DNA from: Escherichia phage Henu5_1 | Direction: 5' to 3' (one strand) | Length of the DNA stretch: 44,212 nt | Sequence record: PQ133007 | Shown here: piece after piece, positions 1-43,268 of the stretch | Numbering within the stretch: position 1 is the first letter of the stretch | Layout of the letters: each line of letters opens with the position of its first letter | The notes under the pieces: generated by a model | Databases searched by the model: none | Seen by the model: the letters and a program-made list of their open reading frames with translations, nothing else | What the model was told of the DNA's origin: nothing | Program-made: the position numbers and the translations under genes

Positions 1-330
1 ATGAATGTAAACGACGCAATCGAAATGTTAACGAAGACTGTTTGCAGTGAGACAAGCCGGTCATGGGCTTATACCGATGCCGTGGGGGCGGTGTTATTTG
101 AAATCGAACGACTGCGCAGTGTCGAAAAAGAATTACGCGCCAGGCTGGAATTGCTCAACGGCACGGCAGCAAGCAAGCTGCAAAAACACAATGAAGAAAT
201 GGAAGAATACAAAAAGCAGGTTATCCGTTTGCGCGCCGAGGGAAAATCCTGGGCGATGATTGCCGAGTTAACCGGAATTAATCAGAGCACAGTGCGCTCC
301 TGGGTACGCAATAATAAAACTTCTAAGTAA
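1..330 (+). CDS. HTH-domain DNA-binding protein (may be 5'-truncated by window edge)
   Basis: ORF begins at base 1; C-terminal helix-turn-helix-like segment SWAMIAELTGINQSTVRSWV; a GAGGG RBS lies at the window 3' end if the genome is circularly permuted. Confidence 0.5.
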   Translation: MNVNDAIEMLTKTVCSETSRSWAYTDAVGAVLFEIERLRSVEKELRARLELLNGTAASKLQKHNEEMEEYKKQVIRLRAEGKSWAMIAELTGINQSTVRSWVRNNKTSK

Positions 331-340: not shown

Positions 341-2605
341 ATGAGCTTAATTAAATTCGCTGTAACACGACCCGCTAAAAAAGGCGAAAAAGCCAGGGCG
401 GAAAACTTCCAGATGACTACCGAAGAGTTTTTCGAATTTATCAATGACGCGAAAGAAATCTCCTCGGTGCATATCAACAAAACGGAAGATAAAGCCGAGT
501 ACGCCCGCCGCAAGCGTAAGGCCGATGGCATTGTGGCTTATACCAGTGATGGGCTGCGCCGCAAGACCAGTGCGGTGGACCGTTCGATCCTGTTCTTCGA
601 TATCGACCGTACCGACACCCGCACCCTACGCCGCTGCCGTAAGGCTTTCGTCGATGCGGGGCTGGAGCACGTATTCCATACAACAACCGGCGACCGCCAC
701 CCGCTGAAAGGCGGCACGCGTTGCGCACGTTTCCTTGTGCTCACGGACAAGCCTGTCTCGGCGGAAGACCTGGGCCGTGTCCAGTATGCGCTATTACACC
801 AACTGGGTCTGTCAGATGTGGACTTCGACGATTGCACGAAAGACACAAACCGCCTGATGTACCTGCCACACCAGCAGTCTGTTATTAAGTGCCACTATGG
901 CAAGCGCGCCCGCGTCCGTCGTCTGCTCCGCCTGGCGGATAAGCTGGGCGTGGAGAAAGAGGAAGTCCGCCGCGAGCTTACTCAGGGCGACGACGCAGTG
1001 GCAGACGGCATTCTGGACTGGTGCTTCCAGGCAGGATTCGAGGAGTTATCTTCCGGTCGCGGTTATGAAGTGCCGTGCCCGAACGAACATCTGCACAGCG
1101 GCGAAGGGTCGACGGCTATCATGGTCAAGGATGGCGAGATCCGTTTCAAGTGTATGCACACCGGTAACGAGTGTTGCTCGGAACTGAATAGACACCAGCA
1201 CCTGGCGCTACGTCTTATCGGGATCCCGGACCACCTGAACGTCGAGCCACACAATATGTCCCGTAAGCAAATCGCCGCCATCCTTCCGGGGCTGGACGAC
1301 GAGGAAGTCGAATCCTTATACGAACATATTGTTGATGCGGTTGGCGACGGCGAAGAATACGGCGTGTGCACCGATGCGGATCTGGATAACGAGCCGGTCG
1401 CGCTGTTCAGTAAGCACGACCCGATTATCGAGGGGTTGATTAACTTTAAATCGACCTGGTACATGGCGGGTGAGTCGAATATCGGTAAGTCTTTCTATGT
1501 GCTGGGCCAAATGGGCGCGGTTGCCGCAGGGATCCCGTTCGGCGGTGCGAAGGTCGTCCAGTCTCATTGCTTCTATTTCGACGCGGAAGGTGGTGAAGCC
1601 TCCAACCAGCGTAAGGAAGCATTGCAGATTAAATACGAGCACGACCTGGACAAGCTGCACATTATCGATCTGCAGTCACGCGGCTGGGATATCACCAGCA
1701 AGTCCGGCTTGCGTGAAGTTATCAGCTTTATCAACCGCACCGCTAACGGCGAACCGGTTGGCCTGGTGGCGTTCGACTCACTAAACCAGACTGTTGCGTT
1801 GCGGTCCGCTGATGCTAAACCGTTCGACGAGAACAACGCCAGCGATATGGGTGAAGTGGTCAAAGCGCTGAAGGCCATTGCGGAAAATACAGGAGGCAGT
1901 GCGGGCGTAATTCACCACCCGGCAAAAGGTGCAAACGGCAGCAGAACCCCACGCGGGTCCGGCGCGCTGCATGGTGCTGTCGATTCCGCTTTCTTCCTGG
2001 AACAGCCGGACGACAACCAGCCCGGACAATTGAACCTGTATCATGAGAAGTCCCGTAACGGCATCAAACAAGCGCCGCGCGGCTTCGTCCTGCTCAAGTG
2101 CAAGGTGAAGGTGGATCTCCGCAAGTCAGAAGCGTTCGCGTCGCACCAGTCCACCAGCACCGGGCCGGACTTCGGCGACGTTGTTGCCGGTTGGGACGTC
2201 AAACCAATTGCGTCCACGCCACGCGACGAGACTCTGTACCTCGTACCGGTCGCCCTGGCACCGTTCGCTATAGAACAGGCGAAGGCCGCGGGCAAAGCAG
2301 CAGTTAAGGAAGAGAACACCGCCGGTCCGCGCAACGAAAAAGAGAAAGTGCTTTATGCGGCCCTGGAAAAACTGATGGAAGATAACCCGAACCATACCGG
2401 CTTCAGTAAATCGGCAATTGTCCGCCAGGCTGGACTCGCGAAGGGTGGCACTTCGACGAAGGCAATCGACGATATGGTGGACCGCGGCGTGATTGGTTTC
2501 TATACAGATCCGCACACCGGGGCCATCTATGGGTCGTCGAATTTAGTCATCAAATCGGATATTCCCATAACGCTTTCGGCGACCGATGACGATCTAAAAG
2601 ATTAA
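341..2605 (+). CDS. DNA primase/helicase (primase-polymerase-like N-terminus plus RecA-like P-loop ATPase)
   Basis: 754 aa ORF; P-loop GESNIGKS in C-terminal half; size and layout typical of phage primase-helicase fusions. Confidence 0.65.
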   Translation: MSLIKFAVTRPAKKGEKARAENFQMTTEEFFEFINDAKEISSVHINKTEDKAEYARRKRKADGIVAYTSDGLRRKTSAVDRSILFFDIDRTDTRTLRRCRKAFVDAGLEHVFHTTTGDRHPLKGGTRCARFLVLTDKPVSAEDLGRVQYALLHQLGLSDVDFDDCTKDTNRLMYLPHQQSVIKCHYGKRARVRRLLRLADKLGVEKEEVRRELTQGDDAVADGILDWCFQAGFEELSSGRGYEVPCPNEHLHSGEGSTAIMVKDGEIRFKCMHTGNECCSELNRHQHLALRLIGIPDHLNVEPHNMSRKQIAAILPGLDDEEVESLYEHIVDAVGDGEEYGVCTDADLDNEPVALFSKHDPIIEGLINFKSTWYMAGESNIGKSFYVLGQMGAVAAGIPFGGAKVVQSHCFYFDAEGGEASNQRKEALQIKYEHDLDKLHIIDLQSRGWDITSKSGLREVISFINRTANGEPVGLVAFDSLNQTVALRSADAKPFDENNASDMGEVVKALKAIAENTGGSAGVIHHPAKGANGSRTPRGSGALHGAVDSAFFLEQPDDNQPGQLNLYHEKSRNGIKQAPRGFVLLKCKVKVDLRKSEAFASHQSTSTGPDFGDVVAGWDVKPIASTPRDETLYLVPVALAPFAIEQAKAAGKAAVKEENTAGPRNEKEKVLYAALEKLMEDNPNHTGFSKSAIVRQAGLAKGGTSTKAIDDMVDRGVIGFYTDPHTGAIYGSSNLVIKSDIPITLSATDDDLKD

Positions 2606-2664
2606 ATTTTGCGCGCATTGGTTGCCATTTTGTGTGCTTTTAGCTGGTCGCATTGGTTGCCGTG

Positions 2665-2870
2665 TAGTGTGAATATAATGCATAGTTATGCAATAAAACT
2701 GCATAAAGTAAGCGGGACAAAAAGCGGGACAAACCATGGGCGGGACAAAGCGGGACGGCACCCCTGTCCCGCCCGGATGACGCGGCCTGGCGAGGAGCGG
2801 GACAGGCGGGACAACTCCCAGTCTTTCAGACTAGACGGGGGTCAACGGCCCCCCTCGTCTGAGACTGCAT
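2665..2870. repeat. Iteron array: 7 copies of GCGGGACA/TGTCCCGC plus conserved hairpin (copy 1 of duplicated module)
   Basis: GCGGGACA at about 2712, 2724, 2740, 2750, 2797, 2806 and inverted TGTCCCGC at 2765; about 80 percent identical to 19495-19690. Confidence 0.7.
2819..2867. promoter_or_regulatory. Conserved 49-nt imperfect palindrome / stem-loop (copy 1)
   Basis: cagtct...agacggggg-loop-cccccctcgtct...agactg; outer and inner stems complementary; no adjacent T-run so not a canonical intrinsic terminator. Confidence 0.5.
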
Positions 2871-3026
2871 AAAATCCGGGATTGCAAAATACACGGCAGC
2901 ATGTCGCGGATTGCGGTCGTCGCTGAACTAGGCAACCAATGCGAGATGCAGAAAGCGGTGTGGAAAATGCAGTTTGCAGTTGCAACGGATAGCGATCGAC
3001 TTTTTCATGCGCATGATTAATATTGG

Positions 3027-3055
3027 TTGCATTCGTGCCAGCACCCTGCTAGATT
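3027..3055 (+). promoter_or_regulatory. Putative sigma70-like promoter (TTGCAT-17-TAGATT) overlapping two ATTGGTTGCA motifs
   Basis: -35 TTGCAT lies inside ATTGGTTGCAT; second motif copy overlaps -10/+1; about 25 nt upstream of GGAGG RBS of ORF 3083. Confidence 0.4.
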
Positions 3056-3082
3056 GGTTGCACACCAACAGGAGGGCGGAAC

Positions 3083-6069: not shown

Positions 6070-6483
6070 ATGTTGAAAAGTATTCTTGATCATAATGCGG
6101 ACGCGCTTGCCGCACTGGCTAAAACCGAAGATCCTGACGCACGCGCTATCATCGCGGACACTATCAGCCACGCGGGGGTCTTCAATGCGAAGTTACCCAG
6201 CCCGCCGGAAAGTAAGCCGGTGGCAAGTGCGACCATAACCATCACCCCAGTGTCCGCCGCAGTTGGCGCGAAGGCCGCCGCTTCAGTTGCCGTCCTGCCA
6301 TCCGACGCAACTAACAAGGCCGGGGCGTGGGTGTCTGCAAACCCAGACTGTGCGGCAATCAATCAGGCTACCGGCGAAATCACAGCAAAATCGGAGGGTA
6401 GCGTCCACATCTTCTGGGTGGCATCCGATGGAGGCGGGGCGATGGCGTCCGCCATCTTCACCGTAACGGGAGCCGCAGAATAA
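6070..6483 (+). CDS. Ig-like (Big_2-type) domain protein
   Basis: In-frame ATG 6070 with GAGGGG RBS inside track ORF 5860-6483; C-terminal beta-rich segment resembles bacterial Ig-like domain. Confidence 0.5.
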   Translation: MLKSILDHNADALAALAKTEDPDARAIIADTISHAGVFNAKLPSPPESKPVASATITITPVSAAVGAKAAASVAVLPSDATNKAGAWVSANPDCAAINQATGEITAKSEGSVHIFWVASDGGGAMASAIFTVTGAAE

Positions 6484-18623: not shown

Positions 18624-18653
18624 TTTGGTCGCTTAAATAGCGGGTGTTAATAT

Positions 18654-18677
18654 GGGGCCAGTACGGCCCCTTTTTTT
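18654..18677 (+). terminator. Rho-independent terminator after major tail gene
   Basis: GGGGCC-AGTAC-GGCCCC followed by TTTTTTT. Confidence 0.7.
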
Positions 18678-18693
18678 ATTGGAGAATACCACA

Positions 18694-19056
18694 ATGGCTA
18701 AAGCACCACTCTTTACACTTGACCCTAAGCCGACTTTTAAGCTACCGATTGAGATCCCGCGCCCCGGAGAAAACGAACCTGGCAAAATGACGTTTACCGT
18801 GCGCCACCGTCCGATCGACGAGTTTTCGCAGACCATGCAGGATACTGAGCGCAAGTTGTCAGAATATGACGACAATGACCCGGACGGCTTTAATGTTATG
18901 GTCGAGGCCATCATGCACGTCGCTGAAGGCTGGAATTTGCCGGACGAATTTAATGCAGCCAACGTCCGCCGCCTGGTAGTCAACTACCCGCGCGCGTTCG
19001 GCGTGTTCCATACGTCGTACTACCTCGAATTGATGGGGTTGCGTGAAAAAAACTAA
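18694..19056 (+). CDS. Tail assembly chaperone (G-like)
   Basis: ATG 18694 with GGAGA RBS; position just upstream of tape measure; ends at slippery A7 run. Confidence 0.6.
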   Translation: MAKAPLFTLDPKPTFKLPIEIPRPGENEPGKMTFTVRHRPIDEFSQTMQDTERKLSEYDDNDPDGFNVMVEAIMHVAEGWNLPDEFNAANVRRLVVNYPRAFGVFHTSYYLELMGLREKN

Positions 19057-19370
19057 TTGAGGCGGCGCGGCGCTTTTACGGCCCGCCGCCACCCTCCGAA
19101 GATTTAGCCGCTAGTTTATGGGGCGCGACACCTGAAGACGTGTGTCCCCCCGTTGCGCTGTGGCCCGACAACGCGAAGGTAGTCGCAGTCTTCACAGATT
19201 GCTCCACGCAATGGCGTACCGGATTCGGTGGCGCATACGGCATCGACTACGGCGTACTGGAATGGCTATTTAAGATGCACGGCATCGAAAACGCGCAGCG
19301 TGCGTTTAAAGATATCAAGCTAATGGAACGCGTTGCGCTGGATGAAATGGCGCGGAAGAACCCCGCATAA
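18694..19370 (+). CDS. Tail assembly chaperone -1 frameshift fusion product (GT-like, predicted)
   Basis: Slippery heptamer A AAA AAC at 19047-19053 just before stop; -1 frame open from 19047 into track ORF 19140-19370. Confidence 0.5.
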
Positions 19371-19374
19371 CGAA

Positions 19375-19690
19375 GCGGGACAGGCGGGATGTCCCGTTTT
19401 GTCCCGCCACCATTAAACCGCATATATACTCACTTTCATTGCATAAACTAAAAGCGGGACGAGGGTGCTGTCCCGATCTGTCCCGCACCTTAAAAGTGAA
19501 TAGCTATGTGGTTTTTCTGCATAAAACAAACGGGACAGAAAGCGGGACAGAATGAGGCGGGACAAAGCGGGACAGCACCCCTGTCCCCGTCAGTGCTGCC
19601 GCGGGTTTTAGCCGATCGGGACAGGCGGGACAAAGCCCAGTCTTTCAGACTAGACGGGGGTCGATAGCCCCCCTCGTCTGAGACTGAATA
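19375..19690. repeat. GGGACA/TGTCCC repeat module (copy 2), about 12 copies plus conserved hairpin 19638-19686
   Basis: Direct and inverted GCGGGACA copies; 19495-19690 aligns with 2665-2870. Confidence 0.7.
19376..19400 (+). terminator. Rho-independent terminator built from GGGACA inverted repeat
   Basis: CGGGACA-GGCGGGA-TGTCCCG followed by TTTT directly after stop at 19370. Confidence 0.5.
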
Positions 19691-19754
19691 AGGTTTGTTT
19701 TAAATTCGCTGATACAATGACCGACGGCAACTGCATAAAAAGGGGGACTGCATA

Positions 19755-22397
19755 ATGGCAGATCAGGCAGCGGGCATCACGCTCAAGGCGGACGTCGCGC
19801 AAATCAAAACGGCTAATACTGTGCTGGACACATTTGCGCAGAAATCCGAGAACACAGAACAGAAAGTAAAAAAATTAAACGACACCCTCGGCAAGTCGAA
19901 AAAGGTCACTGGTGACGCCGCGGGCGGAATGGAAAAGTTAGCGACTGAATCGCAGCGCGCCGCCGACGGCATGACGAAACAGGAGCGACTCGCCAGCCGA
20001 TTAGGCATGTCGACCAAAAACCTGGGATTCGCATCGCGTAACGCCGCATTCCAGTTACAGGATATCGCTGTTACGCTTGAGATGGGTATGCCGGTGCACC
20101 GCGTTATGCTTCAGCAGCTACCGCAGCTTACTGGGGCGTTTGGCGGACTGGGAAACACGCTGCGTTATGTCGTTGGCACACTCGGCCCGTTAGGGATCGG
20201 CATCGCTGCCGTAACGGCAACGCTCGGCGTAGGGGTGGCAATTACGACACGCGCAGAGAACCAGGTGGCGGCGCTTAATAAGACACTGGCGTTGTCCGGT
20301 AATATTTCAGGCCTCACCGCTAACCAGATCCTGGTGCTATCAGAGAACGCCGAGCGGATGGGCGGATCATTTCGCAAGACGCGTGACACAATCCAGGCGC
20401 TGGCGGCGGCGGGTGTGAAAGCGGGTGGTGACTTCGGCGCATTGGCTAAGGTAGTGAATGACTTTGCGAAGGTGTCCAGCCAGCCGATCGAAGATGTGGT
20501 CGCGGCGGTGGCGAAGCTGTCAACCGACCCGGTAGGCGGCTTGCGCGCACTGGCGGATAAGTATCACGTTGTAAACGAAGCGCAGATCCAGCAGGTGCAG
20601 TCGTTGGTGGATATGGGGCGCGAGACAGATGCGGTTGCGTTGGCTAACAAAACCGCCGCCGCGTCGTTCACCACTATGACCAACGATATCAAGGCGAACA
20701 TGGGTACGCTTGAGCGATCTATGAACGTCGTCACATCGGCAGCTAAATCCGTGTGGGACGCCATCCTGGATGTGGGTCGCGCGCAGTCCTCCAATGAGTC
20801 AGAGATGAAAGCGCGTGAATCCTTGCAGCGCATGACCACTGCTTACTATGCCGAGATGAAAGCGGTAAACGCTGCCGGTGGGGTTATGACCGAAGCGCAG
20901 AAAGCACGTATTAACATGCTTTACAGCGAACTGGTCGCCCAGGAGAAAGTAGTGGCGTCGCTCACCCTGCGCAACCGCGCCGAGCGTGACAACGCCCGCG
21001 CCGCAGACGAATCCGCAAAGGCGAACGAGGAGGCCAACCGCACCGCCCGCGACCGCTCTGCGTTCGAGAAGGAGTACGCAACCAACGCGAAGAAGCGCGC
21101 AGACGAGATCGCCCGCCTCAATTTGCTGAATAAGCGCGGCGTTATTGACGAGAAAGAGCTTGCTGAGGCGGTTAAGCAGGTAAACGCGCGTTACAAAGAC
21201 CCGGCCCCGAAGAAGGCCGCGGCTGTTCGCGTGGATGCCGGTATGAAAATGCTGGAAGTCGCACGGAGCGAACTGGCCCAGCTTCGAGAATCCGGCAAGC
21301 AGATCGAAGCCAACGCGTCTACGCAGACCCGCACGCAACGCGCTCAAGCGGCCTTAAACAAGCTGATCGCCGACAATGAGCAGTTAATCGCTGCGAGCAA
21401 AGAAAGAGCGCTAACGGCAGCCGAAAAGCAGCAGATGGTCGAATTCGGACGCGTGAAGGAAGTGCGCGAGCAGATCGTCGAAGAAGCCAAATTGCTGGAC
21501 GCGAAAGAGAAGCAGGTTAAGGCGCACGCGCAGATCGATGCCTTCGTCAAGAACCAGAACGCTGAACTAAAAGCCACCGCCGCGGGCTATGCGCTTTCCA
21601 CTCGCGAAGCGGCAAACCTGCGCGAAGAATTGCAGCTAATTGACCGCCTGAAGCGGGTTGGCGCTAACGATACCGATATTGACAAGGCGGTGTCTAAGCT
21701 GCGCGAAGTGCAGGAAGCACAGACCGGCGCTAACGCCTCGCTATGGGATGGCTTCAGCCGCGGGCTTAAGGATAGCGTGGATGATATTGGTAATGGATAT
21801 ACGCAGATGGCGTCGCTCACAAAATTCACGTTCAGCGCTATGCAAGACACGATGAACGAGTTTTTCGAGACGGGCAAGCTGAACGCAAAGGATATGGTTA
21901 AGTCCATCCTTAGCGAATTAATCAAGCTGGCTACCTCGCAGGCGTTCAAGTCGATCGTTAGCGCTTTTGGTGGCGACGGCGGCAAAAACGGATTGTTCGG
22001 CGCTATCTTCTCGGGCCTCACCAAGAATGCGGACGGCGGAGCGTACGCAGGAGGCAATCTAGCGGCCTATTCTGGGAAAGTGGTAAGCCAGCCTACCTTT
22101 TTTAGTTATGGCGTCCAGGCGTTCGCTAAGGGCGCAGGATTGATGGGTGAGGCTGGACCCGAGGCCATCATGCCACTGAAGCGCGGGCCGGACGGGAAAC
22201 TTGGCGTTGCCGCGTCGGGTGCGGGCGGTGGTATGGTCGTGACGACTAACGTTTACACTGGGGCCGGCAAAACAGACACCAGTGTGAGCGGCCCAGACCC
22301 CCGTACAGCGCAGGCGTTCGGCAAGCAAATCACCGAGGCGGTCAAGGCCGAGATCGTGAAGGCAACGAAACCGGGTGGTGTACTTTACAAACGATGA
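19755..22397 (+). CDS. Tail tape measure protein
   Basis: 880 aa, alpha-helical Ala/Gln/Lys-rich with coiled-coil character, C-terminal Gly-rich segment; AGGGGGA RBS. Confidence 0.85.
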   Translation: MADQAAGITLKADVAQIKTANTVLDTFAQKSENTEQKVKKLNDTLGKSKKVTGDAAGGMEKLATESQRAADGMTKQERLASRLGMSTKNLGFASRNAAFQLQDIAVTLEMGMPVHRVMLQQLPQLTGAFGGLGNTLRYVVGTLGPLGIGIAAVTATLGVGVAITTRAENQVAALNKTLALSGNISGLTANQILVLSENAERMGGSFRKTRDTIQALAAAGVKAGGDFGALAKVVNDFAKVSSQPIEDVVAAVAKLSTDPVGGLRALADKYHVVNEAQIQQVQSLVDMGRETDAVALANKTAAASFTTMTNDIKANMGTLERSMNVVTSAAKSVWDAILDVGRAQSSNESEMKARESLQRMTTAYYAEMKAVNAAGGVMTEAQKARINMLYSELVAQEKVVASLTLRNRAERDNARAADESAKANEEANRTARDRSAFEKEYATNAKKRADEIARLNLLNKRGVIDEKELAEAVKQVNARYKDPAPKKAAAVRVDAGMKMLEVARSELAQLRESGKQIEANASTQTRTQRAQAALNKLIADNEQLIAASKERALTAAEKQQMVEFGRVKEVREQIVEEAKLLDAKEKQVKAHAQIDAFVKNQNAELKATAAGYALSTREAANLREELQLIDRLKRVGANDTDIDKAVSKLREVQEAQTGANASLWDGFSRGLKDSVDDIGNGYTQMASLTKFTFSAMQDTMNEFFETGKLNAKDMVKSILSELIKLATSQAFKSIVSAFGGDGGKNGLFGAIFSGLTKNADGGAYAGGNLAAYSGKVVSQPTFFSYGVQAFAKGAGLMGEAGPEAIMPLKRGPDGKLGVAASGAGGGMVVTTNVYTGAGKTDTSVSGPDPRTAQAFGKQITEAVKAEIVKATKPGGVLYKR

Positions 22398-31706: not shown

Positions 31707-31730
31707 AAGGGGCCGCACGGCCCCTTTTTT
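31707..31730 (+). terminator. Rho-independent terminator at the junction of the two arms
   Basis: GGGGCCG-CAC-GGCCCC followed by TTTTTT; overlaps stop of convergent minus gene. Confidence 0.6.
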
Positions 31731-32304
31731 AGTTTGAGTTTTCCCAGTCCATTTTGCGCCGAACCAGCGGGCTTTCGTAGTATTCCTTTCCTTCCACTTC
31801 CACTAATGGCCAATCGTTCACGATCACGTATGGCTCTGCTATATCCTCAATAACACCGTGCGCACTATGCTGCCCGAACGACACACCGACCCGGATAACA
31901 CCGGCAACTCGACGGGCTAGATACTCGCGGGCACAACGTGCTTCCACCAGTCCGCGACGGATGCCGCTGGTAGCTTTTACCTCGTATGTCCAGACGGCAT
32001 CAATCATATGTTCGCGGAAGTCAGGGCCGGACTTAACCTTGCGCTTGCCAACCATGATAATATCGCCGCGGTCGATAGTGTTAGCGCTAAACAGGCCGGT
32101 ACGCATTAGCAAACCTTGCGGGATACAGCTACGCCCGCCCGCCTGCCCTTCGAGGTACATGCCTGCAAACATTTCACCCAGCACACCGACGAGTCTGCTT
32201 TGCTTGCACGCGTCGGACTTTAAGCGCCACTGGTCAAACTCGATGCTTGCAATCATTGCCGCCAGGTGGAATTGTTTACCGGTTATTTCATATTCGCCGT
32301 ACAT
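31729..32304 (-). CDS. Hypothetical protein
   Basis: 191 aa, ATG 32304 with GAGGGA RBS. Confidence 0.6.
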   Translation of the reverse strand: MYGEYEITGKQFHLAAMIASIEFDQWRLKSDACKQSRLVGVLGEMFAGMYLEGQAGGRSCIPQGLLMRTGLFSANTIDRGDIIMVGKRKVKSGPDFREHMIDAVWTYEVKATSGIRRGLVEARCAREYLARRVAGVIRVGVSFGQHSAHGVIEDIAEPYVIVNDWPLVEVEGKEYYESPLVRRKMDWENSN

Positions 32305-32345
32305 TGTGAATCCCTCATTGATGCGGGCCGAAGCCCGCGATTAAA

Positions 32346-32837
32346 TTATTTAAGTGCGCCAGTCACCAGTGTTTTTTCCATGTTACGGAAATCTTCCTGC
32401 GTCATGCAGATTTTCGATCCGTCTTCGCCCATGAGCACGACCATAGGTTGGACGTCCTGGGCTACAACTCCAAAATTGGCGGCGTTAACCGTCTTGCCCG
32501 CGGAAGAATGCCCGCCTTTTAGGCTGTCGAATTGTGCTGCCGTTGTATCGATCTGAATTTCGTCATGCACAGTCATGTAAGACTCGCCCAGCAGGGCGGC
32601 ATACGCCACCAGATCCACGATGTTATCTTCCTGGTGTTTACGGTGCTGGCGCACCAGCTTCAGGCAGATCAGGAAGGTCCAGGCTTCTTGCTCGGACAGG
32701 TCGCGCCCGGTAAGCGCGTTAAACACGGCAGCGATTTGTTTAGCGCTGCGTTCTTCTTTCGCGTTGTCATAGCCGTTTTCTTTCCCGCGCTGTTCCATAG
32801 TGGTGGCGGCGTTTTTGCAGTATTCGTATGCTTTCAC
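32346..32837 (-). CDS. Hypothetical protein
   Basis: Track ORF 32346-32915; GTG at 32837 with AAGGG RBS preferred (ATG 32798 is an alternative). Confidence 0.45.
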   Translation of the reverse strand: MKAYEYCKNAATTMEQRGKENGYDNAKEERSAKQIAAVFNALTGRDLSEQEAWTFLICLKLVRQHRKHQEDNIVDLVAYAALLGESYMTVHDEIQIDTTAAQFDSLKGGHSSAGKTVNAANFGVVAQDVQPMVVLMGEDGSKICMTQEDFRNMEKTLVTGALK

Positions 32838-32892
32838 AGTATTACCCTTTTTAGAGAGGGGGCTGTATTGCCCCCCGACACGTTTACTATAG

Positions 32893-32916
32893 TGCAACCA
32901 ACCTATTGGTTGCAAG
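32893..32916. promoter_or_regulatory. Palindromic double motif GCAACCAA-N4-TTGGTTGC
   Basis: Two motif copies as a perfect inverted repeat overlapping the 3' end of the HAD-like gene, upstream of gene 32837. Confidence 0.5.
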
Positions 32917-33373
32917 TGAATTTTGCAACGTTTATTGCGTAAATTTTCGGGACCAAATCACCACACGCCCGACGAATTGCCGCGATGTTCTTCTCGCAAT
33001 CTTCAATGATGACCAGTTCAGACACGTCCGCGTAGCAGACCATTTTGAACACGGCGCACGCCTTAAACTCTGGCGGCGGGGTGTCGTCCAGCATGTGGCG
33101 CATAAACAACCTGCCTACGGGGAAGACTTCCAGTTGTTCGGCGGTGGTGTCCCAACATTCACGCTGCCGGTTTGTCAGATACGCGATCTCGAAGCCTTGC
33201 TCTTTATACATGCGCAGTAGCGGCAGCATATCCATGTTCAGGTCTTCGCGGACGTGCGCCTTGTGCCACTTTGCCCAAAAGGTGGATTTCGTTTTTATCC
33301 CCGGCACCAGGTCGGCGCGCGCATCGCTTGATCCATTAATAACGCCATCCAGATCACAAATCAGTAATTTCAT
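32903..33373 (-). CDS. HAD-superfamily hydrolase-like protein
   Basis: N-terminal DLDGV (HAD motif I DxDG), downstream LTN (motif II); GAGGA RBS. Confidence 0.55.
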   Translation of the reverse strand: MKLLICDLDGVINGSSDARADLVPGIKTKSTFWAKWHKAHVREDLNMDMLPLLRMYKEQGFEIAYLTNRQRECWDTTAEQLEVFPVGRLFMRHMLDDTPPPEFKACAVFKMVCYADVSELVIIEDCEKNIAAIRRACGDLVPKIYAINVAKFTCNQ

Positions 33374-33594
33374 TTCAATTCCTCAATCAAATTTGCACGA
33401 ACACTACGGGCGGAAAACGTGTCACACACAAGATGACAGCGGGCAGTCATTACAAGCCAGCCAGTAAGGTCCATGCCCAGGAGGTGTTCCGGACGTGACA
33501 CACGACGCACTTTGTTCTCCCTCGGGTTGATTTGGTAGCGTTTAACAATTTCGTCCACGACGCGCATACTGCGGTCAACGATTAAGATATTCAC
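33370..33594 (-). CDS. Hypothetical protein
   Basis: 74 aa; GTG start with GGAGA RBS; overlaps both neighbours. Confidence 0.45.
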   Translation of the reverse strand: MNILIVDRSMRVVDEIVKRYQINPRENKVRRVSRPEHLLGMDLTGWLVMTARCHLVCDTFSARSVRANLIEELK

Positions 33595-34060
33595 GTAGTT
33601 CTCCTTCGCTCATTATTTCAATTTGTGCGCTGCCGATGGGCGGCGCTTCGTCAAAGACTATCAATTGCTGGCACTTGTTATTGCTCGGCCCGACTTCGCC
33701 GGTTACAGCATGTATAAATCGGATCCGCCAGTCCAGAAGAATTATCAGGTTTGCAGTCTTCCGGGCCAGCTTCGCCCACTTCGTCGACGTGTCCTGATTC
33801 AGTAGCATGACGGTCCGGCGTCCGTGCGCTGCGCACTCGACCCACGGCAGCGGATCGGAATACGGCGGGTTGCACCACTTCCACCCTTTCAACTCTGACC
33901 AGTCCACCTCAAGCGCGCTGTGCTCTGCCGTGAAGTAACGCGGTAGCAGATGGTTGGCGTCGCTTGCCGCCATATCGTAACGGAATCGGTACTTACGGCG
34001 CAGCGGTTTAAATAAAGCTGGCGGCGTGCGCCAGCTATCTTTTTGCTCACTCTTCTGCAT
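33575..34060 (-). CDS. DNA N6-adenine methyltransferase (phage Dam-type)
   Basis: 161 aa with NPPY catalytic motif (CNPPYS) and upstream DMAASD segment. Confidence 0.65.
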   Translation of the reverse strand: MQKSEQKDSWRTPPALFKPLRRKYRFRYDMAASDANHLLPRYFTAEHSALEVDWSELKGWKWCNPPYSDPLPWVECAAHGRRTVMLLNQDTSTKWAKLARKTANLIILLDWRIRFIHAVTGEVGPSNNKCQQLIVFDEAPPIGSAQIEIMSEGELREYLNR

Positions 34061-34511
34061 GATCTGGATCTATCGCGTACAGGGCGATTTTATTGCCGGT
34101 CTTGAGAATGCGTTGCACGCGCTTTGTCTCCTCGACACTAAGCGGGCGCGCGTCCGGGTAGAAGCTGCCGTTTGTAGGGTTGCGCCACGCCATGAGCACA
34201 AGGTCTTTCCGGGCGATCGAAGACTGGCGACCCTTCAGACGCGCGTGCTCCTCCGCACGTTTGCAATGCTCACGCAAACCATCGGCAGTGATGCGGTTTA
34301 GTGCAACGCTGGTGGTGTATCCGGTGCGCTGCATAATACCCATCAATTCGAAAAGCAGTTCGAAGCGCTCCTCTAACTCCTGGCGCACTTTCTTCTCCCC
34401 TTCATATAGCGACTGGTTGGCGGACGCCAACGCGTTCGCACGTTTGGCCTGATCGCGGGCTTCGAGGCATTGCGCGGCCCAGTAATTTTTCTCTTCTTGT
34501 AAAATTTTCAT
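34047..34511 (-). CDS. Hypothetical protein
   Basis: ATG 34511 with GGAGA RBS inside track ORF 34047-34559; charged helical sequence. Confidence 0.55.
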   Translation of the reverse strand: MKILQEEKNYWAAQCLEARDQAKRANALASANQSLYEGEKKVRQELEERFELLFELMGIMQRTGYTTSVALNRITADGLREHCKRAEEHARLKGRQSSIARKDLVLMAWRNPTNGSFYPDARPLSVEETKRVQRILKTGNKIALYAIDPDHAEE

Positions 34512-34530
34512 CGTGTTGTCTCCAGGTATT

Positions 34531-34556
34531 AAAAAGGGCGTCCAACCGGACACCCT
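34531..34556 (-). terminator. Terminator-like hairpin on minus strand
   Basis: Minus-strand RNA AGGGUGUCC-GGUU-GGACGCCCU followed by UUUUU. Confidence 0.4.
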
Positions 34557-34557
34557 C

Positions 34558-34586
34558 AATATAATGCAACCAATCTAGTTATGCAA
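34558..34586 (-). promoter_or_regulatory. Putative promoter (TTGCAT-17-TATATT) built on two ATTGGTTGCAT motifs
   Basis: -35 inside motif at 34581-34592; second motif 34564-34574 overlaps spacer and -10. Confidence 0.5.
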
Positions 34587-34590
34587 CCAA

Positions 34591-34914
34591 TTACGCATAA
34601 AAATTTGGGTCGCGCGCTACGTCTACCAGATACAGGTTACTAATGCGGTTGCCGTAGTGGCCTGGTGTGCGCTGACGGCACACTACGGCATAGCCTGGAG
34701 GGATTGTATTGCCAGTCTCAATAATCCACGCCACGCGTGCGCCAGACAGCGTCTTGCCGTTGCATTCGATACGAGTACCGCCATCGGCAGTATTGAGGTT
34801 GCCAATCTTGCAGCCGGTTGACTTCAGGCGGATAACGCCGGTCTTGCTGTCGTAGGAAAAAAGCTGATTGGTCATTGCCACTGAAAAGTCGATGGCGTCG
34901 AATGTAGTATTCAT
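34591..34914 (-). CDS. HNH homing-endonuclease-like protein (NUMOD4/HNH_3-like, possibly degenerate)
   Basis: N-terminal FSYDSKTG..IRLK motif and GNRISNLYLV resembling the DNR..NL element; catalytic His not obvious. Confidence 0.4.
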   Translation of the reverse strand: MNTTFDAIDFSVAMTNQLFSYDSKTGVIRLKSTGCKIGNLNTADGGTRIECNGKTLSGARVAWIIETGNTIPPGYAVVCRQRTPGHYGNRISNLYLVDVARDPNFYA

Positions 34915-35606
34915 TTTAAATTTTCCTCGTTAACCGCTATCGCGAAGCCGCGCGGGGTGAGTGAGCGGATTAATTTTGTACGAGCGGATTTACCACCGAG
35001 GCGACTATACTGTTTCGAGTACCCTTTTTCAACGAAAACAGGTTTCTTCTCTGGCATACGGAAGCCGTTGCCGGTCCATAAGCAGGTCAGCTTCGGATAT
35101 GAATCGCGGGCGTTGATGTATTCCGGGAAGAGCGGGTGTACGTCATCCTCCGGCAGATATCCGCCATACTCCCACGGGTCAAACGAGTGGTCCGGCTTAC
35201 GCCATTGAGTTGATAGCACGCTGCGCGGATTCTCAATCATATACGGCACTTCAAAGAAATCACCCAGGTAAGCGGCGATCTTCGCGGTGCGCACTGCCTT
35301 AAGCTGGAAGGCAGGGTCGCGGGCGCGCTTGCGCGGGAAAGCTGGCGCACCGCTCACCGCCAGATCCGTACACGGCGGGAATGCGTAAATGATATCCGGC
35401 GTGCCGAAATCGCCATTCATCGCACGGTCCACGAAGTCCAGATCGATAAACTCATTACGATAGCGGATCCCGCGACCATAAATCCTGTAGTCCAGGTACG
35501 ACCCGTGATCGGCTTCGGAGTAGTTGAAGCAATAACACTTATGCCCCATCTCGGCAGCACGCTCAATCATCAAGCCGCTGCCGTCAAATAATGACCAGAT
35601 AATCAT
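34911..35606 (-). CDS. DNA cytosine-C5 methyltransferase-like protein (short)
   Basis: FDGSG (motif I-like), AFPPCTDLAVSG (motif IV PC-like), ENP (motif VI ENV-like); 231 aa, shorter than typical Dcm. Confidence 0.55.
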   Translation of the reverse strand: MIIWSLFDGSGLMIERAAEMGHKCYCFNYSEADHGSYLDYRIYGRGIRYRNEFIDLDFVDRAMNGDFGTPDIIYAFPPCTDLAVSGAPAFPRKRARDPAFQLKAVRTAKIAAYLGDFFEVPYMIENPRSVLSTQWRKPDHSFDPWEYGGYLPEDDVHPLFPEYINARDSYPKLTCLWTGNGFRMPEKKPVFVEKGYSKQYSRLGGKSARTKLIRSLTPRGFAIAVNEENLK

Positions 35607-37027
35607 TTGCGCGCCTTTTTAGCTTTCATGTATTCCATTAAATCGTCCTGAATATCTCGCTTACTGTCGCGGCGCTCTGCGACCAGTTCATCAAGTGTGC
35701 CGCGCGCCTGGATAATGTAGACGAATACCGGGCGAGGGTGTCCGGCTTGCATCTGGCGAACTGGCCCGATACGCTCCACGATCTGCGCAAAGTGCTCATA
35801 GTTCCAGGTGTCTGAGAAGATGGCAAGGTGGTGTCCCCCATCCTGCAAGTTAAGGCCGTGACCCGCCGATGCCGGGTGCGCAAACATGATGGGGATCTCG
35901 CCCCTGTTCCACGCTTCCATATCCTTATTGCCTTGCTTACCCTTACCCATCGCTACGCCGTGAGGGAATTTCTTCTTAAGACGTGCCAGATCATGCTTGT
36001 ACTGGTACGCGACGAGCAACGGTGCGCCGTTCAACTCCTCCACGATACTTTCTAGCGCGTCCAGTTTAGCGTCGTGAATTTTCACCCATTCGTCGGTGCG
36101 CTCGCCGTCTTCGTCGACTTTATACACGGCCCCGGAAGCAAGCTGAAGGCACTTAATAGTCTTCGACGCAGCGTTCGCCGCCTCCACAGTTCCGCTTTCC
36201 AGTTCGGCAAATAGCTCCGCTTCGAACTGGTCATAAATCTTGCGGGCTTTCTTCGGCAGGTCCACAACAACCGGCGTATAGATTGGCTTGTCACATCCGA
36301 AGTATTCAGCCGCATCAACTGTGAGCGACACGTCGGACAGGCGTTGTTGTATTTCTTTCTCGGAGTTCTTAAGCGGGGCGTGCTGCATAGTGAAGCTGCC
36401 AGGCTTAACGGGCTTGCTAATAAACCAGCGATCCGTGAATGCCTTATAGCTGCTGCCGAGGCGTTCGCCACCATCGACAAACCACGTCTGACCCCACAGG
36501 TCTTTCAGTCCGTTTGGTGCGGGTGTGCCGGTCAGGTTAATCCAGCGCTTGACGTGCTTATGGGCGATCGCCGCCAGTGCGCGGGCGCGCTTACTCCCCT
36601 GCTTGCTTCTATAACCTTTCAGCTTAGTGGATTCATCGGCAACCACGACCGTAAAGGGCCACTCGTCGCCGCAATACTCGACGAGCCACTCAACCACATC
36701 ATAGTTAACACAAACCACGTTGGCGTCGCTCTCAATCGCCGCAATACGGGCCTTCTCGGATCCGGTGCCGTCTACTACCAGCAAGGCGGGGAAGCGCCAT
36801 TTTTCTTGCTCCGGGGGCCATGTACCAGATGCAACGCGCAGCGGGGCCAGCACCAGTACGCGGTCCTCCTGGTTGGACAGGATGCCGGTCTGGAACATTT
36901 TATTCAGCGCCCACATGGTCGCGCCAGTTTTACCCGACCCCATTGTCGCCCAAATATTGCAGCGCTTATGCTTGAGGATGAACGCGGTTATCAACTTCTG
37001 ATATTCGCGACGTCGGAATCTTGCCAT
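35603..37027 (-). CDS. SNF2-family helicase/ATPase
   Basis: Walker A GSGKTG, DEST (DExx) box, C-terminal helicase motif; ATG 37027 inside track ORF 35603-37117. Confidence 0.7.
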   Translation of the reverse strand: MARFRRREYQKLITAFILKHKRCNIWATMGSGKTGATMWALNKMFQTGILSNQEDRVLVLAPLRVASGTWPPEQEKWRFPALLVVDGTGSEKARIAAIESDANVVCVNYDVVEWLVEYCGDEWPFTVVVADESTKLKGYRSKQGSKRARALAAIAHKHVKRWINLTGTPAPNGLKDLWGQTWFVDGGERLGSSYKAFTDRWFISKPVKPGSFTMQHAPLKNSEKEIQQRLSDVSLTVDAAEYFGCDKPIYTPVVVDLPKKARKIYDQFEAELFAELESGTVEAANAASKTIKCLQLASGAVYKVDEDGERTDEWVKIHDAKLDALESIVEELNGAPLLVAYQYKHDLARLKKKFPHGVAMGKGKQGNKDMEAWNRGEIPIMFAHPASAGHGLNLQDGGHHLAIFSDTWNYEHFAQIVERIGPVRQMQAGHPRPVFVYIIQARGTLDELVAERRDSKRDIQDDLMEYMKAKKARK

Positions 37028-37031
37028 ATCT

Positions 37032-37250
37032 TTATTCCGCCTTTTTCCAGACTTCTGTCTCACTGTTCCAGTTCCTTTTTGTAGCGTCGTAGTTGGTGGC
37101 GTGTCCGATGTGCACACCAGTCGCCCGGAAGCTCTTAAATTTTTGCCAGCACACCGTCAACGGCATCGGGTCATTCATGCCTGCAATAAACCATACGCGA
37201 TCGCCTGGTTTGCATTCGCCCAGCTTGGTGAGTCGGTAATGTTCTTTCAT
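37032..37250 (-). CDS. Small hypothetical protein
   Basis: ATG 37250 with GGGAGA RBS inside track ORF 37032-37265. Confidence 0.45.
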   Translation of the reverse strand: MKEHYRLTKLGECKPGDRVWFIAGMNDPMPLTVCWQKFKSFRATGVHIGHATNYDATKRNWNSETEVWKKAE

Positions 37251-37293
37251 CGTCATGTCTCCCAAAAATGGCGGGACAAGCCCGCCGTCTTAA

Positions 37294-37467
37294 TTATTTT
37301 TGCTCGGCGCGGTAGCGGCGCTGCCGTTCACGCTCTTTTTTATTTCGGCACGATTTGCACTCGGCCCGATACCCGTCGGGGCTGCGCGCGGTTTTGCCGG
37401 TGTATTTGTGGAACTGGGATAGCGGTTTAACACAACCGCAATTACTACAGCGTTTTTCTTCAACCAT
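37294..37467 (-). CDS. Small zinc-ribbon-like protein
   Basis: 57 aa from ATG 37467 (GAGGA RBS); CxxC...CxxC cysteine pairs. Confidence 0.45.
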   Translation of the reverse strand: MVEEKRCSNCGCVKPLSQFHKYTGKTARSPDGYRAECKSCRNKKERERQRRYRAEQK

Positions 37468-37507
37468 TTCTAAAATCCTCGATAGGGCTAACCTGCTAAC
37501 TATACTG

Positions 37508-37786
37508 TTAAGCGACCAATTCAGCAACCAATAAATCACAGTCGGCTATGCTGTCGATAACGCGAACGTCCGCACCGCGGCGGGCCATTCGCTCATGTTC
37601 TCGTACCTGGTGCGGCTTAGGTTTACCGCCTGGGCGCTTCACTTCGACGAAAACTATCTTGCCGTTGATGATGATTATAAGGTCGGGCGCTCCCGCGCGC
37701 CCCTCCCATGCCACTTTACGGCAGAATCCGCCGACGGCTTTAACCAACTTCATAAGGTGACTTTGGATCTTGCCTTCTGGTGTCAT
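37508..37786 (-). CDS. VRR-NUC domain nuclease
   Basis: GAPDLIIIINGKIVFVEVKRPGGKPKPHQ matches the PD-(D/E)xK VRR-NUC signature; start overlaps DNA polymerase stop. Confidence 0.6.
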   Translation of the reverse strand: MTPEGKIQSHLMKLVKAVGGFCRKVAWEGRAGAPDLIIIINGKIVFVEVKRPGGKPKPHQVREHERMARRGADVRVIDSIADCDLLVAELVA

Positions 37787-40077: not shown

Positions 40078-40244
40078 TGCTTAATCCTCACCACGGCGTC
40101 AGCACTGCCGATCATGGAGAAGATACCGTCGGAAAGGGTAATCTCCTCACCGTTGTTGCGAATCTCGGCAACTGTGAAATATTCGCCCAGCATTTTGGAC
40201 CATACTTGCATTCCGACTTTTACTTCGCTGGCTTTAATACGCAT
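40074..40244 (-). CDS. Small hypothetical protein (56 aa, below threshold), translationally coupled to DNA polymerase
   Basis: Hand-translated MRIKASEVKVGMQVWSKMLGEYFTVAEIRNNGEEITLSDGIFSMIGSADAVVRIKQ; stop overlaps polymerase ATG (ATGA); AGGA RBS. Confidence 0.4.
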   Translation of the reverse strand: MRIKASEVKVGMQVWSKMLGEYFTVAEIRNNGEEITLSDGIFSMIGSADAVVRIKQ

Positions 40245-40261
40245 TTTTCATTGTCCTATTA

Positions 40262-40284
40262 AAAAGCCCGCATTAAGCGGGCTT
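40262..40284 (-). terminator. Rho-independent terminator on minus strand
   Basis: Minus RNA AAGCCCGC-UUAA-UGCGGGCUU followed by UUUUU, downstream of gene 40303-41034. Confidence 0.5.
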
Positions 40285-40302
40285 GAATAGTGGGCTTTGC
40301 CC

Positions 40303-41034
40303 TTAACGGCGGCGACGTTTACGTGGTGCTTCGTCTTCGTCGTCTTCGTCCTCATCTTCGTCATCGCGTGGCTTTCGACGTTTACGAGGTTTCTCGTCTT
40401 CGTCATCATCGTCGTCATCGCGGCGCTTGGACTTTTTGGACTTGCGCGGGCTTTCATCTTCGTCATCGTTATCCAGGTCTTCGTCTGAGCACGAAGACCC
40501 GCCACCGCCGAAGGCTTCGCCGTCATCACGGAAGCGCAGACCCAAAAGACCAGCACCGAGTCCCTTGCCGTTGGTATTGTTCCACGCCCAGATATCGAGT
40601 GACACGTTGCAATAACAACCGGAGTAGATCTCCTGGCCTTCGATCTCGTCGCCTTCTACGGTCAGACCTTGTTCCGTCTGCTTCTCGCCGAGTGACGTTT
40701 GAATGATCGGCTGTTTGAACGATTTGGCGTTGATGTACAACATGCCTTCGAATTCTTCGGTTACTTCGTCGCGCTCGTCACCATCGCGAACTGCGCATTC
40801 CTTAGAATCCTGGGCGTAGTGGCGGTCCATCCACTTATCAGCATTCTTCTCGGATTTCAGCTTGTCGGTGAGCACTGCGCGCGCTGCCGCTTCCACTTTG
40901 TCCACCTGCGGATCTTCTTTATCCAGAAGAATCACTGCACGGTATGCCGGTTTTTGACCATCCTGTTTAGGGGTATCGCGTTCCCAAATTTTAAGGAAAC
41001 ATACGCGCACATTTTTCAGGTTGACTTTAGCCAT
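40303..41034 (-). CDS. Putative ssDNA-binding protein (DUF2815-like) with extreme acidic/basic C-terminal tail
   Basis: ATG 41034 with GAGGA RBS; N-terminus MAKVNLKNVRV; C-terminal 60 aa alternate D/E runs with KR clusters; family assignment from memory. Confidence 0.45.
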   Translation of the reverse strand: MAKVNLKNVRVCFLKIWERDTPKQDGQKPAYRAVILLDKEDPQVDKVEAAARAVLTDKLKSEKNADKWMDRHYAQDSKECAVRDGDERDEVTEEFEGMLYINAKSFKQPIIQTSLGEKQTEQGLTVEGDEIEGQEIYSGCYCNVSLDIWAWNNTNGKGLGAGLLGLRFRDDGEAFGGGGSSCSDEDLDNDDEDESPRKSKKSKRRDDDDDDEDEKPRKRRKPRDDEDEDEDDEDEAPRKRRRR

Positions 41035-41099
41035 TTTCCAATTCCTCATTTTCACATGTATCGGGGTTATTATGAGCCGCCCCGTTCGGCTTGGTTGCC

Positions 41100-41128
41100 A
41101 ATTTACTTGGTTGCGCCTAAGCGGTCAA
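41100..41128 (-). promoter_or_regulatory. Putative promoter (TTGACC-17-TAAATT) with CAACCAAG motifs
   Basis: Motif copies 41091-41100 and 41107-41115 in spacer and just downstream of -10. Confidence 0.4.
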
Positions 41129-43220: not shown

Positions 43221-43231
43221 TGTCTCGTCCT

Positions 43232-43260
43232 CTAAAAATAGGCCCGCTAATCTGCGGGCC
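43232..43260 (-). terminator. Terminator-like hairpin on minus strand
   Basis: GGCCCGC-AGAUUA-GCGGGCC followed by U-rich tract, after stop of gene 43269-43811. Confidence 0.45.
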
Positions 43261-43268
43261 GGATAATA

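Follow-up and report, generated by a model that had tools for sequence, protein, structure and literature searches.

The 44,212-nt sequence of Escherichia phage Henu5_1 (PQ133007), the whole of which is referred to below as the window, carries two paralogous non-coding modules built around the hexamer GGGACA: module 1 directly follows the gene for the 754-aa helicase-primase, and module 2 occupies the gap between the tail-chaperone and tape-measure genes. Both modules are probably loading sites of the origin-of-replication type, at which the phage's own helicase-primase would load itself, a function suggested by comparison of sequences. The evidence comes from the anatomy of the modules, their conservation in related phages, the co-variation of their repeats (iterons) with the C-terminal domain of that protein, and the switching of iteron type in both modules at once. 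The window was assigned to Dhillonvirus (HK578/SO-1-like coliphage); region 19300–19800 had matches in 158 phage records, nearly all of them Escherichia or Shigella Dhillonvirus (HK578/SO-1-like siphoviruses), with a best identity of 97 %. Names between L149 and L284 are labels given here to comparison loci or contigs from relatives.

Anatomy of the two modules

An earlier note on this DNA had described a 385-bp non-coding gap in the middle of the tail operon with about 12 direct and inverted copies of GGGACA. The gap, which lies between the end of the DUF1799 tail-chaperone open reading frame (ORF) at 19370 and the tape-measure start at 19755, is real but is 384 nt long, and 12 exact copies were indeed counted at 19377–19632 (seven on the plus and five on the minus strand), with six others at 2714–2813. 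The window as a whole has 30 copies against 18 ± 4 expected, a number that 0 of 100 shuffles reached. Counted as the longer unit RCGGGACR, module 2 holds seven plus-strand and three minus-strand copies; units with a GGGAC core number 13 in module 2 and seven in module 1, so that each cluster contains six or more iterons. Clusters of the same repeat are found at two separate sites (2712–2815 and 19375–19634), an arrangement of the P4 type.

A blastn search of the gap against the window gave one strong paralogue, with 19517–19691 matching 2699–2872 at 83.6 % identity over 177 columns (E 1.5e-46). The earlier note had aligned 19495–19690 with 2665–2870 at about 80 % identity; the paralogy holds, but the similarity starts near 19517, and the two longer ranges share 163 matches in 211 columns (77 %). 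Alignment also bore out the iteron block, the large hairpin and the presence of two paralogous copies 16.8 kb apart, and the similarity extends beyond low-complexity GC stretches to the AT-rich box, the spaced iterons and two hairpins. The shared part consists, in the same order in both modules, of an AT-rich box ending CTGCATAAA, four direct GCGGGACA units, a hairpin formed by an iteron and an inverted iteron, a spacer specific to each module, a further pair of units at a distance of 9 nt and a 49-nt hairpin (19638–19686, equivalent to 2819–2867); the spacing of the direct iterons matches as well (12, 15/16 and 10 nt). Both modules can be summarized as an AT-rich box, an array of GCGGGACA iterons, a long GC-rich hairpin and a sigma70-like promoter, to which module 2 adds two upstream sets of direct plus inverted units, each followed by its own AT-rich box (Table 1).

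ORFs inside the gap (e.g. 19506–19667) are not kept as ORFs in relatives; the start codon is absent there and the indels are not multiples of three. ORFs lying across the repeat modules are probably false gene calls. Such ORFs (2609–2872 and 19506–19667, both on the plus strand; PQ850604 Bas83_0056) are annotated as hypothetical proteins in several GenBank records.

Iteron type and the C-terminus of the helicase-primase

Phages with a helicase-primase 44–49 % identical to that of the window (St162, L166, L173, L174, L186, L188, L199, L200 and L201) carry a module of like build directly 3' of the gene. Two boxes, the AT-rich one (GTGAATAGTTATGCA) and one that follows the hairpin (TTATTCA...CACGGCAGCA), kept their sequence across lineages, whereas the hairpin and iterons changed in sequence and stayed constant in place and shape. 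The iteron was GGGGGAGA in St162, L166, L188 and L282, CGGACAA in L173, L174 and L281, CCGACA in L186, AGGGATA in L201, TTGCGAGT in L199 and GGGGATC in L200, and it was GTGTGGCA in L198, a closer relative whose protein is 68 % identical overall (body 71 %, C-terminus 54 %).

Iteron type followed the last ~110 residues of the helicase-primase and not the rest of the protein. The proteins of St162 (GGGGGAGA) and L173 (CGGACAA) were 92–100 % identical over the first ~650 alignment columns and 39–44 % identical in columns 700–782, a segment in which St162 and L188, which share an iteron, were 94–100 % identical. In DNA comparisons, L173 and St162 diverged in two separate segments, one comprising the C-terminal codons and the other the iterons plus hairpin, and the conserved AT-rich box between them argues against a single hitch-hiking block. 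Discrete C-terminal types recurred on bodies that were 95–97 % identical among the 119 full-length homologues, and some proteins of the Dhillon clade combined a body 77 % identical to that of the window with a C-terminus 94–98 % identical. The C-terminal type was also used to predict the iteron in three further contigs, and the prediction held in all three: L281, with a type-C-like C-terminus on a 77 % body, had CGGACAA; L282, with a type-A-like C-terminus, had GGGGGAGA; and L283, with a body 77 % and a C-terminus 98 % identical to those of the window, had GCGGGACA. This co-variation, which spans at least eight iteron types, points to matched pairs of C-terminus and iteron.

Both modules switched iteron together in three lineages, namely L198/L278 (GTGTGGCA), L200/L280 (GGGAT-type) and eiAU-183 (CGCCCC(G)); in the L198 contig, GTGTGGCA iterons are accompanied by the hairpin and TGATACAAT in the gap that precedes the tape-measure gene (L278). 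The joint switching cannot be put down to physical linkage with the C-terminal codons, since 17 kb separate module 2 from the gene. From these comparisons the iterons appear to be recognition (docking) sites of the helicase-primase. Of the explanations offered in the earlier note, two origins or paired regulator-binding loci are favoured by the co-variation and the joint switching, with origin function as the probable interpretation.

The upstream helix-turn-helix (HTH) proteins were also considered as iteron binders and were rejected because they did not track iteron type: the Cro-like HTH gene was ~90 % identical whatever the iteron, and the adjacent small gene gp12 was absent in L188.

The motif TGATTTATAAGG was present between the small hairpin and the last two iterons in L173, L200, L279, L284 (eiAU) and L199, and absent from the modules of the window. 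It held the same position across lineages with different iterons and may be a site for a host factor.

The helicase-primase protein

The only helicase family matched in Pfam was the RecA-type AAA_25 (RecA/RepA-like) at residues 357–531, and no superfamily-3 AAA+ helicase homologous to the Rep proteins of Staphylococcus pathogenicity islands (SaPIs) was found in that search. PHROGs classified the whole protein as a replicative helicase-primase, with primase-family matches at residues 16–177, and the invariant DxD, His and Cys/His residues in the N-terminal half would fit a primase with a zinc finger. A sequence search of the PDB with the helicase-primase gave no match. When the C-terminal 154 aa were used alone, the protein search returned one fragment match; the homologues came from the full-length search.

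The C-terminus is predicted to be a winged-helix domain. Its alignment showed two helices, a basic/polar recognition helix, a beta hairpin and an invariant acidic tail (..DDL..), the recognition helix being GGTSTKAIDDM in the window, GGDRYKILKDL in St162 and GGRRRPAIMAL in L186. An AlphaFold2 model of the domain had the order helix–helix–helix–strand–wing–strand over ~70 residues, with a predicted local distance difference test score (pLDDT) of 78–88, and its top PDB matches in Foldseek were all winged-helix proteins (MarR/PcaV, Rio2, histone H1 and ORC subunits). Pfam gave a weak match of the domain to the winged-helix protein S25 (E 0.019).

The acidic tail (..TDDDLKD; 2588–2602 in the window) showed an invariant D and a nearly invariant L across the aligned homologues (26/26). 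It recalls the acidic tails of T7 gp4 and gp2.5, which contact DNA polymerase.

Conservation in related phages and earlier annotation

When the genomes of relatives were compared, both modules were present in every Dhillonvirus locus retrieved. In 36 unique module sequences from Dhillonvirus the iterons and hairpin stems were invariant or nearly so, and the spacers and the hairpin loop varied. The same two loci are annotated as repeat_region in the Sodalis phage SO-1 (GenBank GQ502199), as 'region A' before the tape-measure gene and 'region B' after the helicase-primase gene. The excerpt of the SO-1 record describes region A as 'direct, inverted and palindromic repeat sequences; sequence similarity with region B; possible ...'; within that excerpt the entry is an annotation only, with neither a mechanism nor a binding protein nor a comparative analysis. 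In other GenBank records the loci are blank or overlaid with hypothetical coding sequences, and no description of these repeats was found in the literature on Dhillonvirus, HK578 and SO-1.

To call two copies of such a module unusual, as the earlier note did, was an overstatement: the pair is found throughout Dhillonvirus, in Eiauvirus and in one metagenomic lineage, and it had been flagged in the SO-1 record. In the L200 lineage, whose helicase-primase is 46 % and whose tape measure is 51 % identical to those of the window, GGGAT-type iterons and a hairpin of the same shape lie in the gap that precedes the tape-measure gene (L280), and the Edwardsiella phage eiAU-183 (tape measure 38 % identical) has CGCCCC(G) clusters at both sites, ahead of the tape-measure gene and behind the helicase-primase gene. 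A layout with two modules is thus old and widespread. Phages of the St162 type have one module only. No copy of the module was found in a search of E. coli genomes and plasmids for satellites or prophages with the same origin, and an exact scan of IMG/VR for CGGGACA-N5-CGGGACA gave mostly chance hits.

Origin-like features and proposed mechanism

The AT-rich box of module 1 was the highest in AT of all 40-bp windows (genome mean 45 %), and both boxes of module 2 were within the top 0.13 %. The second box of module 2 is flanked by iterons of opposite orientation, inverted on one side (19470 and 19480) and direct on the other (from 19530); in module 1, iterons lie on only one side of the box. 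A GAATAGTTATGCA box within the AT-rich box was kept in sequence across distant lineages. Module 1 starts right after the end of the helicase-primase gene (2605), a position downstream of the proposed initiator that was also seen in nine distant lineages; module 2, at 17 kb from the helicase-primase gene, does not have it.

The long hairpin had the same shape and a different sequence in six other lineages, the hairpins of the lineages ranging from −10 to −21 kcal/mol (DNA parameters) with z from −1.2 to −5.2. Compensatory stem changes were seen in the Dhillon-like clade, for example AGACGGGGG/CCCCCCTCGTCT to GGACGGGGGG/CCCCCTCCGTCC in L279. The hairpin was more stable on the minus than on the plus strand in 7/8 cases with DNA parameters and in 12/13 with RNA parameters, which is a hint, though no proof, that it acts as bottom-strand DNA and not in a rightward mRNA.

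In the mechanism that we infer, binding, melting and initiation would all take place at the modules. The C-terminal winged helix of the 754-aa protein would read the GCGGGACA iterons, several protomers would gather on the array and assemble the ring helicase, the adjoining AT-rich box would melt, and the long GC-rich hairpin would extrude, the bottom strand being the more probable one, and would signal loading or priming to the N-terminal primase. Located directly 3' of the initiator gene, module 1 would be in the usual place for such origins, and module 2 would be a complete ancient duplicate serving as a second origin or as a partner site for the same protein, as in P4 ori/crr.

Several observations weigh against an origin function or against parts of this mechanism. 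GC skew across the window tracked gene orientation and transcription and gave no origin signal. In L167–L172 (IMG/VR; helicase-primase 43–44 % identical) the helicase-primase gene is followed by a terminator and convergent genes, with no iteron module there, and no comparable module was found in the Kagunavirus Schulenburg (L149, MK931438), in which the helicase is 34 % identical and the segment inverted and which was chosen to tell a module tied to the end of the helicase gene from one tied to the start of the late genes. The mean pLDDT of the AlphaFold2 model was only 69, and the winged-helix matches in Foldseek were weak (E 0.03–0.5, none ≤ 0.001). Within the Dhillon-like clade the identity rule is fuzzy, in that L163 keeps GCGGGACA with a C-terminus ~53–60 % identical and L198 uses GTGTGGCA at ~54 %. 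Lastly, a promoter follows each module, which leaves room for a purely transcriptional role of the iterons.

Some of these relatives have other repeats of note. In L168 and L171 an AAGGCCC cluster lies ~1.5 kb further on and could be a displaced origin. Schulenburg (MK931438) has a ~45-nt element (CACCTGAGCTTGTGAAGTATGAACAAGCGACCGCGGCGCG..GGCAGG) twice in non-coding DNA, at ~6330–6375 and 37906–37950, 31 kb apart, and thus has a pair of paralogous intergenic elements as well.

Transcription signals and alternative explanations

The extended −10 element of module 2, TGATACAAT, is a single-copy sequence in the window and was present in 15/16 unique module-2 variants; the promoter of module 1 (TTGCAT-17-TAGATT) lies ~160 nt after the hairpin. 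Since each module is followed by a host-type promoter, transcription of the genes beyond it would start afresh there. In L279, module 2 is preceded by an inserted convergent gene and a bidirectional terminator, and the tail genes must therefore start from a promoter in that gap. The first unit of module 2 (19376–19396), an inner palindrome followed by TTTT, resembles an intrinsic terminator for the upstream tail genes. Given this terminator-like start, the origin-like core and the promoter, the gaps are compound, each combining the end of one transcription unit, the core and the start of the next. A consensus promoter and terminator scan of both regions found no sigma70 site at threshold and only a terminator-like call on the minus strand, and few strong sigma70 promoters were found anywhere in a genome-wide scan.

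It is unlikely that the modules are transcription-control regions without a replication role, their repeats being operator or activator sites that time the promoters at 3027–3055 (lysis and structural genes) and 19710–19718 (tape-measure and tail genes). The promoters themselves, the need of the tail genes in L279 for one of their own and the location of module 1 at the early/late boundary would all fit such a role, and paired regulatory sites are typical of late operons, as in the late promoters of P2 and Mu. The iterons, however, co-vary with the C-terminus of the helicase-primase and not with the HTH regulators, the AT-rich box and the hairpin would be left without a role, and the distance from last iteron to promoter is very unequal (~210 nt in module 1 and ~75 nt in module 2); neither this spacing nor the HTH genes, which do not follow iteron type, match an activator-dependent late promoter. 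A better fit for an operator is a separate motif, TTGGTTGC, which overlaps the module-1 promoter and is paired in other gaps.

The window contains 20 copies of TTGGTTGC against 2.1 ± 1.4 expected, mostly in intergenic pairs 12–35 bp apart, at 2618, 2653, 2932(−), 3023, 3054, 3648(−), 6529(−), 13785(−), 13799(−), 21078(−), 24427(−), 29884(−), 32894(−), 32906, 34566(−), 34583(−), 37524(−), 41091, 41107 and 44016. The boxes at 3023 and 3054 overlap the −35 and the start region of the sigma70-like promoter, and relatives carry related boxes (AATTGGTTGCC, ATGTTGGCTGC and GCAACCAAC). The motif looks like a genome-wide operator or promoter motif of a phage regulator, for which the HTH protein encoded at 1–330 is a candidate, and it is distinct from the iterons.

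A functional unit made of RNA, with the hairpins acting as terminator, antiterminator or processing signals in the rightward transcript (cf. lambdoid nut/put), is improbable. Two paralogous structured elements do head long operons, the hairpin keeps its shape while its sequence changes between lineages, and TTTT follows the stem in the first unit of module 2; but the long hairpin has no T-run, and hence no U-tract, in either Dhillonvirus module, and only read-through would transcribe it, since the promoter-like sites are further downstream. Its greater stability on the minus strand and the match of the iterons to a DNA-binding type of protein domain also speak against RNA, and Rfam searches of the modules in gathering and E-value modes gave no match at gathering thresholds and only chance hits of miRNA type (E 0.08–0.9).

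That the modules are packaging (pac/cos) or recombination sites bound by a terminase or recombinase is very hard to credit: the eiAU record does start inside module 2, PNS1 45 nt before it, the records of 101114B2, 22664B1 and PTXU06 end just after module 1, and two direct 175-nt repeats could in principle recombine, but an identical 27-nt sequence at either end of a Logan contig of L198/L278 (ERR11172925_9173) suggests that assembly broke at the repeat, 5 kb separate module 1 from the small terminase gene, no recombinase varies along with iteron type, and published PhageTerm calls for Dhillonvirus point elsewhere, to headful packaging in BF9 (PMC10059673) and to the cos sequence ATCTTAAGGG in EE09 (PMC10673088). 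A search of the window for this cos sequence, which is unrelated to the iterons, found it absent. The recombination hotspot proposed in the earlier note found no support, the only related sign being that assemblers break at the repeat. Record ends at or near the modules were noted at position 1 of KF772233/KF772234 (eiAU), at position 45 of MK138527 and at the L198 end/L278 start; they most simply reflect assemblers breaking at the repeat and should be read as physical termini only with caution.

With the modules taken as loading sites for the helicase-primase, a wider reading can be advanced tentatively. Virulent siphoviruses, at least in Dhillonvirus, Eiauvirus and the metagenomic lineage, might run an obligatory pair of complete, long-kept origins that co-evolve with one protein domain; the origin in the tail operon, directly upstream of the tape-measure/tail promoter, might gate tail-gene expression through its occupancy or firing by the helicase-primase; and the hairpin might be the bottom-strand loading signal for a new class of initiator combining primase, RecA-type helicase and winged helix. 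If true, this would couple genome replication directly to late morphogenesis.

Layout of the window

The coordinates of the features are given in Table 1. The window appears to be the whole of a circularly arranged genome, opened at the HTH gene (position 1). Just upstream of that gene lies a candidate rightward early promoter, TTGACA-17-TAGTTT (44153–44187), followed by the palindrome TTGGTCATTAACCAAC (44172–44195).

Table 1. Genes, module parts and candidate promoters in the window
Feature	Position	Strand	Remarks
HTH protein	1–330		
Helicase-primase, 754 aa	341–2605	+	N-terminal primase region; Zn-finger-like CxxxxxH..C.H..C motif; RecA-type AAA_25 helicase
Last ~110 codons of helicase-primase	2273–2602	+	Predicted winged helix (residues ~666–737) and acidic tail DDDLKD; proposed iteron-recognition domain
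Module 1	2606–3082	+	Non-coding region directly 3' of helicase-primase gene; SO-1 'region B'
Module 1 AT-rich box AATATAATGCATAGTTATGCAATAAAACTGCATAAAGTAA	2672–2711	+	78 % AT
Module 1 iteron array	2712–2815	+	Four direct, one inverted (2766−), two direct (2797, 2806)
Module 1 long hairpin	2819–2867		Paralogue of 19638–19686; z −3.6 (+), −3.8 (−)
Sigma70-like promoter TTGCAT-17-TAGATT	3027–3055	+	Before gene at 3083; two TTGGTTGC boxes overlap
Small genes, lysis genes, terminase, head and tail genes	Between module 1 and tail chaperones		
Tail chaperones	18652–19370		
Module 2	19371–19754	+	Entire non-coding gap from tail chaperone to tape-measure gene; equivalent to SO-1 'region A'
Module 2 iteron quartet	19375–19408		Two direct, then two inverted (GCGGGACA GGCGGGAT / GTCCCG TTTT GTCCCGC)
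Module 2 AT-rich box 1	19411–19453	+	Ends TGCATAAA (19440); 72 % AT
Module 2 iteron triplet	19454–19487		One direct (GCGGGACG), two inverted (19470−, 19480−), pointing away from AT-rich box 2
Module 2 AT-rich box 2 (GTGAATAGCTATG...CTGCATAAA)	19489–19530	+	Paralogue of 2672–2711; candidate DNA-unwinding element; flanked by oppositely oriented iterons
Module 2 four direct RCGGGACA iterons	19530–19576	+	Starts 19530, 19542, 19557, 19567
Module 2 small hairpin	19569–19588		Fourth iteron and degenerate inverted iteron (GGGACAGCACCCCTGTCCC); inverted arm poorly conserved in relatives
Module 2 two further direct iterons (TCGGGACAGGCGGGACAA)	19616–19634	+	9 nt apart
Module 2 long imperfect GC-rich hairpin (CAGTCTTTCAGACTAGACGGGGGTC..GCCCCCCTCGTCTGAGACTG)	19638–19686		DNA fold −12.8 (+), −14.1 (−) kcal/mol; z −3.6, −4.0
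Extended −10 promoter-like element TGATACAAT	19710–19718	+	37 nt upstream of tape-measure start codon
Tape-measure gene, then further tail genes	19755–22397		
Replication genes	31729–44039	−	

Significance and comparison with known systems

The repeats were already known from the SO-1 record, and this kind of system is known as well; what the sequence comparisons suggest as new are the identification of the reader domain, an iteron 'code' across lineages and an ancient second copy of the module, situated in the tail operon and evolving in concert with the first one. This would be the first map of origins and initiator specificity for Dhillonviruses and their relatives, common coliphages in phage-therapy and phage-defence studies, in which the modules are often mis-annotated, with 'hypothetical proteins' placed over them. 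Swappable C-terminal domains with matching 6–8-bp iterons could serve orthogonal phage replicons, and the specificity code could predict when co-infecting phages or satellites are able to share replication proteins. A duplicated origin in the tail operon that switches in concert with the first would also make one ask how a 44-kb genome coordinates its two origins with late transcription.

The closest analogues would seem to be SaPI Rep/ori, pRN1 and P4 ori/crr. In SaPIs the C-terminal winged helix of Rep or PriRep binds the iterons, and the ori, with an AT-rich centre, lies immediately downstream of rep (PMC9371898). Common to SaPIs and the window are an initiator-helicase (primase-fused in SaPI5) with a C-terminal winged helix for short iterons, predicted in the present case, six to twelve iterons right after the gene, element-specific specificity, and an AT-rich centre between oppositely oriented iterons, as at 19470–19576. 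The SaPI Reps, however, are of the AAA+ superfamily-3 type, whereas the motor here is a RecA-type AAA_25 (RepA/DnaB-like) with no sequence relation detected, and SaPIs have one ori and no long hairpin in place of two full modules, of which one is remote from the gene.

The ORF904 protein of pRN1 (primase-polymerase, helicase and winged helix) needs a downstream stem-loop whose shape, and not its sequence, is conserved, and the authors described the same layout in phage BIP-1 (PMC4234260). It resembles the present system, as predicted, in its primase-helicase-winged-helix protein and in a stem-loop directly 3' of the gene, flanked by conserved sequence, and differs in being a superfamily-3 helicase of an archaeal plasmid, with a single origin and no iteron array.

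The alpha protein of P4 is reportedly a primase-helicase with a C-terminal origin-binding winged helix, and P4 ori and crr are said to consist of octamer iterons in two clusters several kb apart, both needed in cis and one beside the gene. Two separated iteron clusters, one of them adjoining the primase-helicase gene, are likewise found here; but ori and crr share iterons only, whereas the present modules are complete paralogues with AT-rich box, iterons and hairpin, and the alpha helicase belongs to superfamily 3. The IncQ (RSF1010) oriV uses three proteins (RepA, RepB' and RepC), 20-bp iterons and two single-strand initiation (ssi) hairpins on opposite strands. It likewise combines iterons, an AT-rich region and hairpin priming signals in one origin, and its RepA is in the AAA_25 family, but in the present system a single fused protein is paired with 8-bp iterons, and each module has one hairpin. 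The record of Schulenburg notes an HHpred similarity of its helicase homologue to RepA (1NLF). Since its motor is of the RecA type and not of superfamily 3, the system of the window would work like those of SaPIs and P4 without being a member of them by descent.

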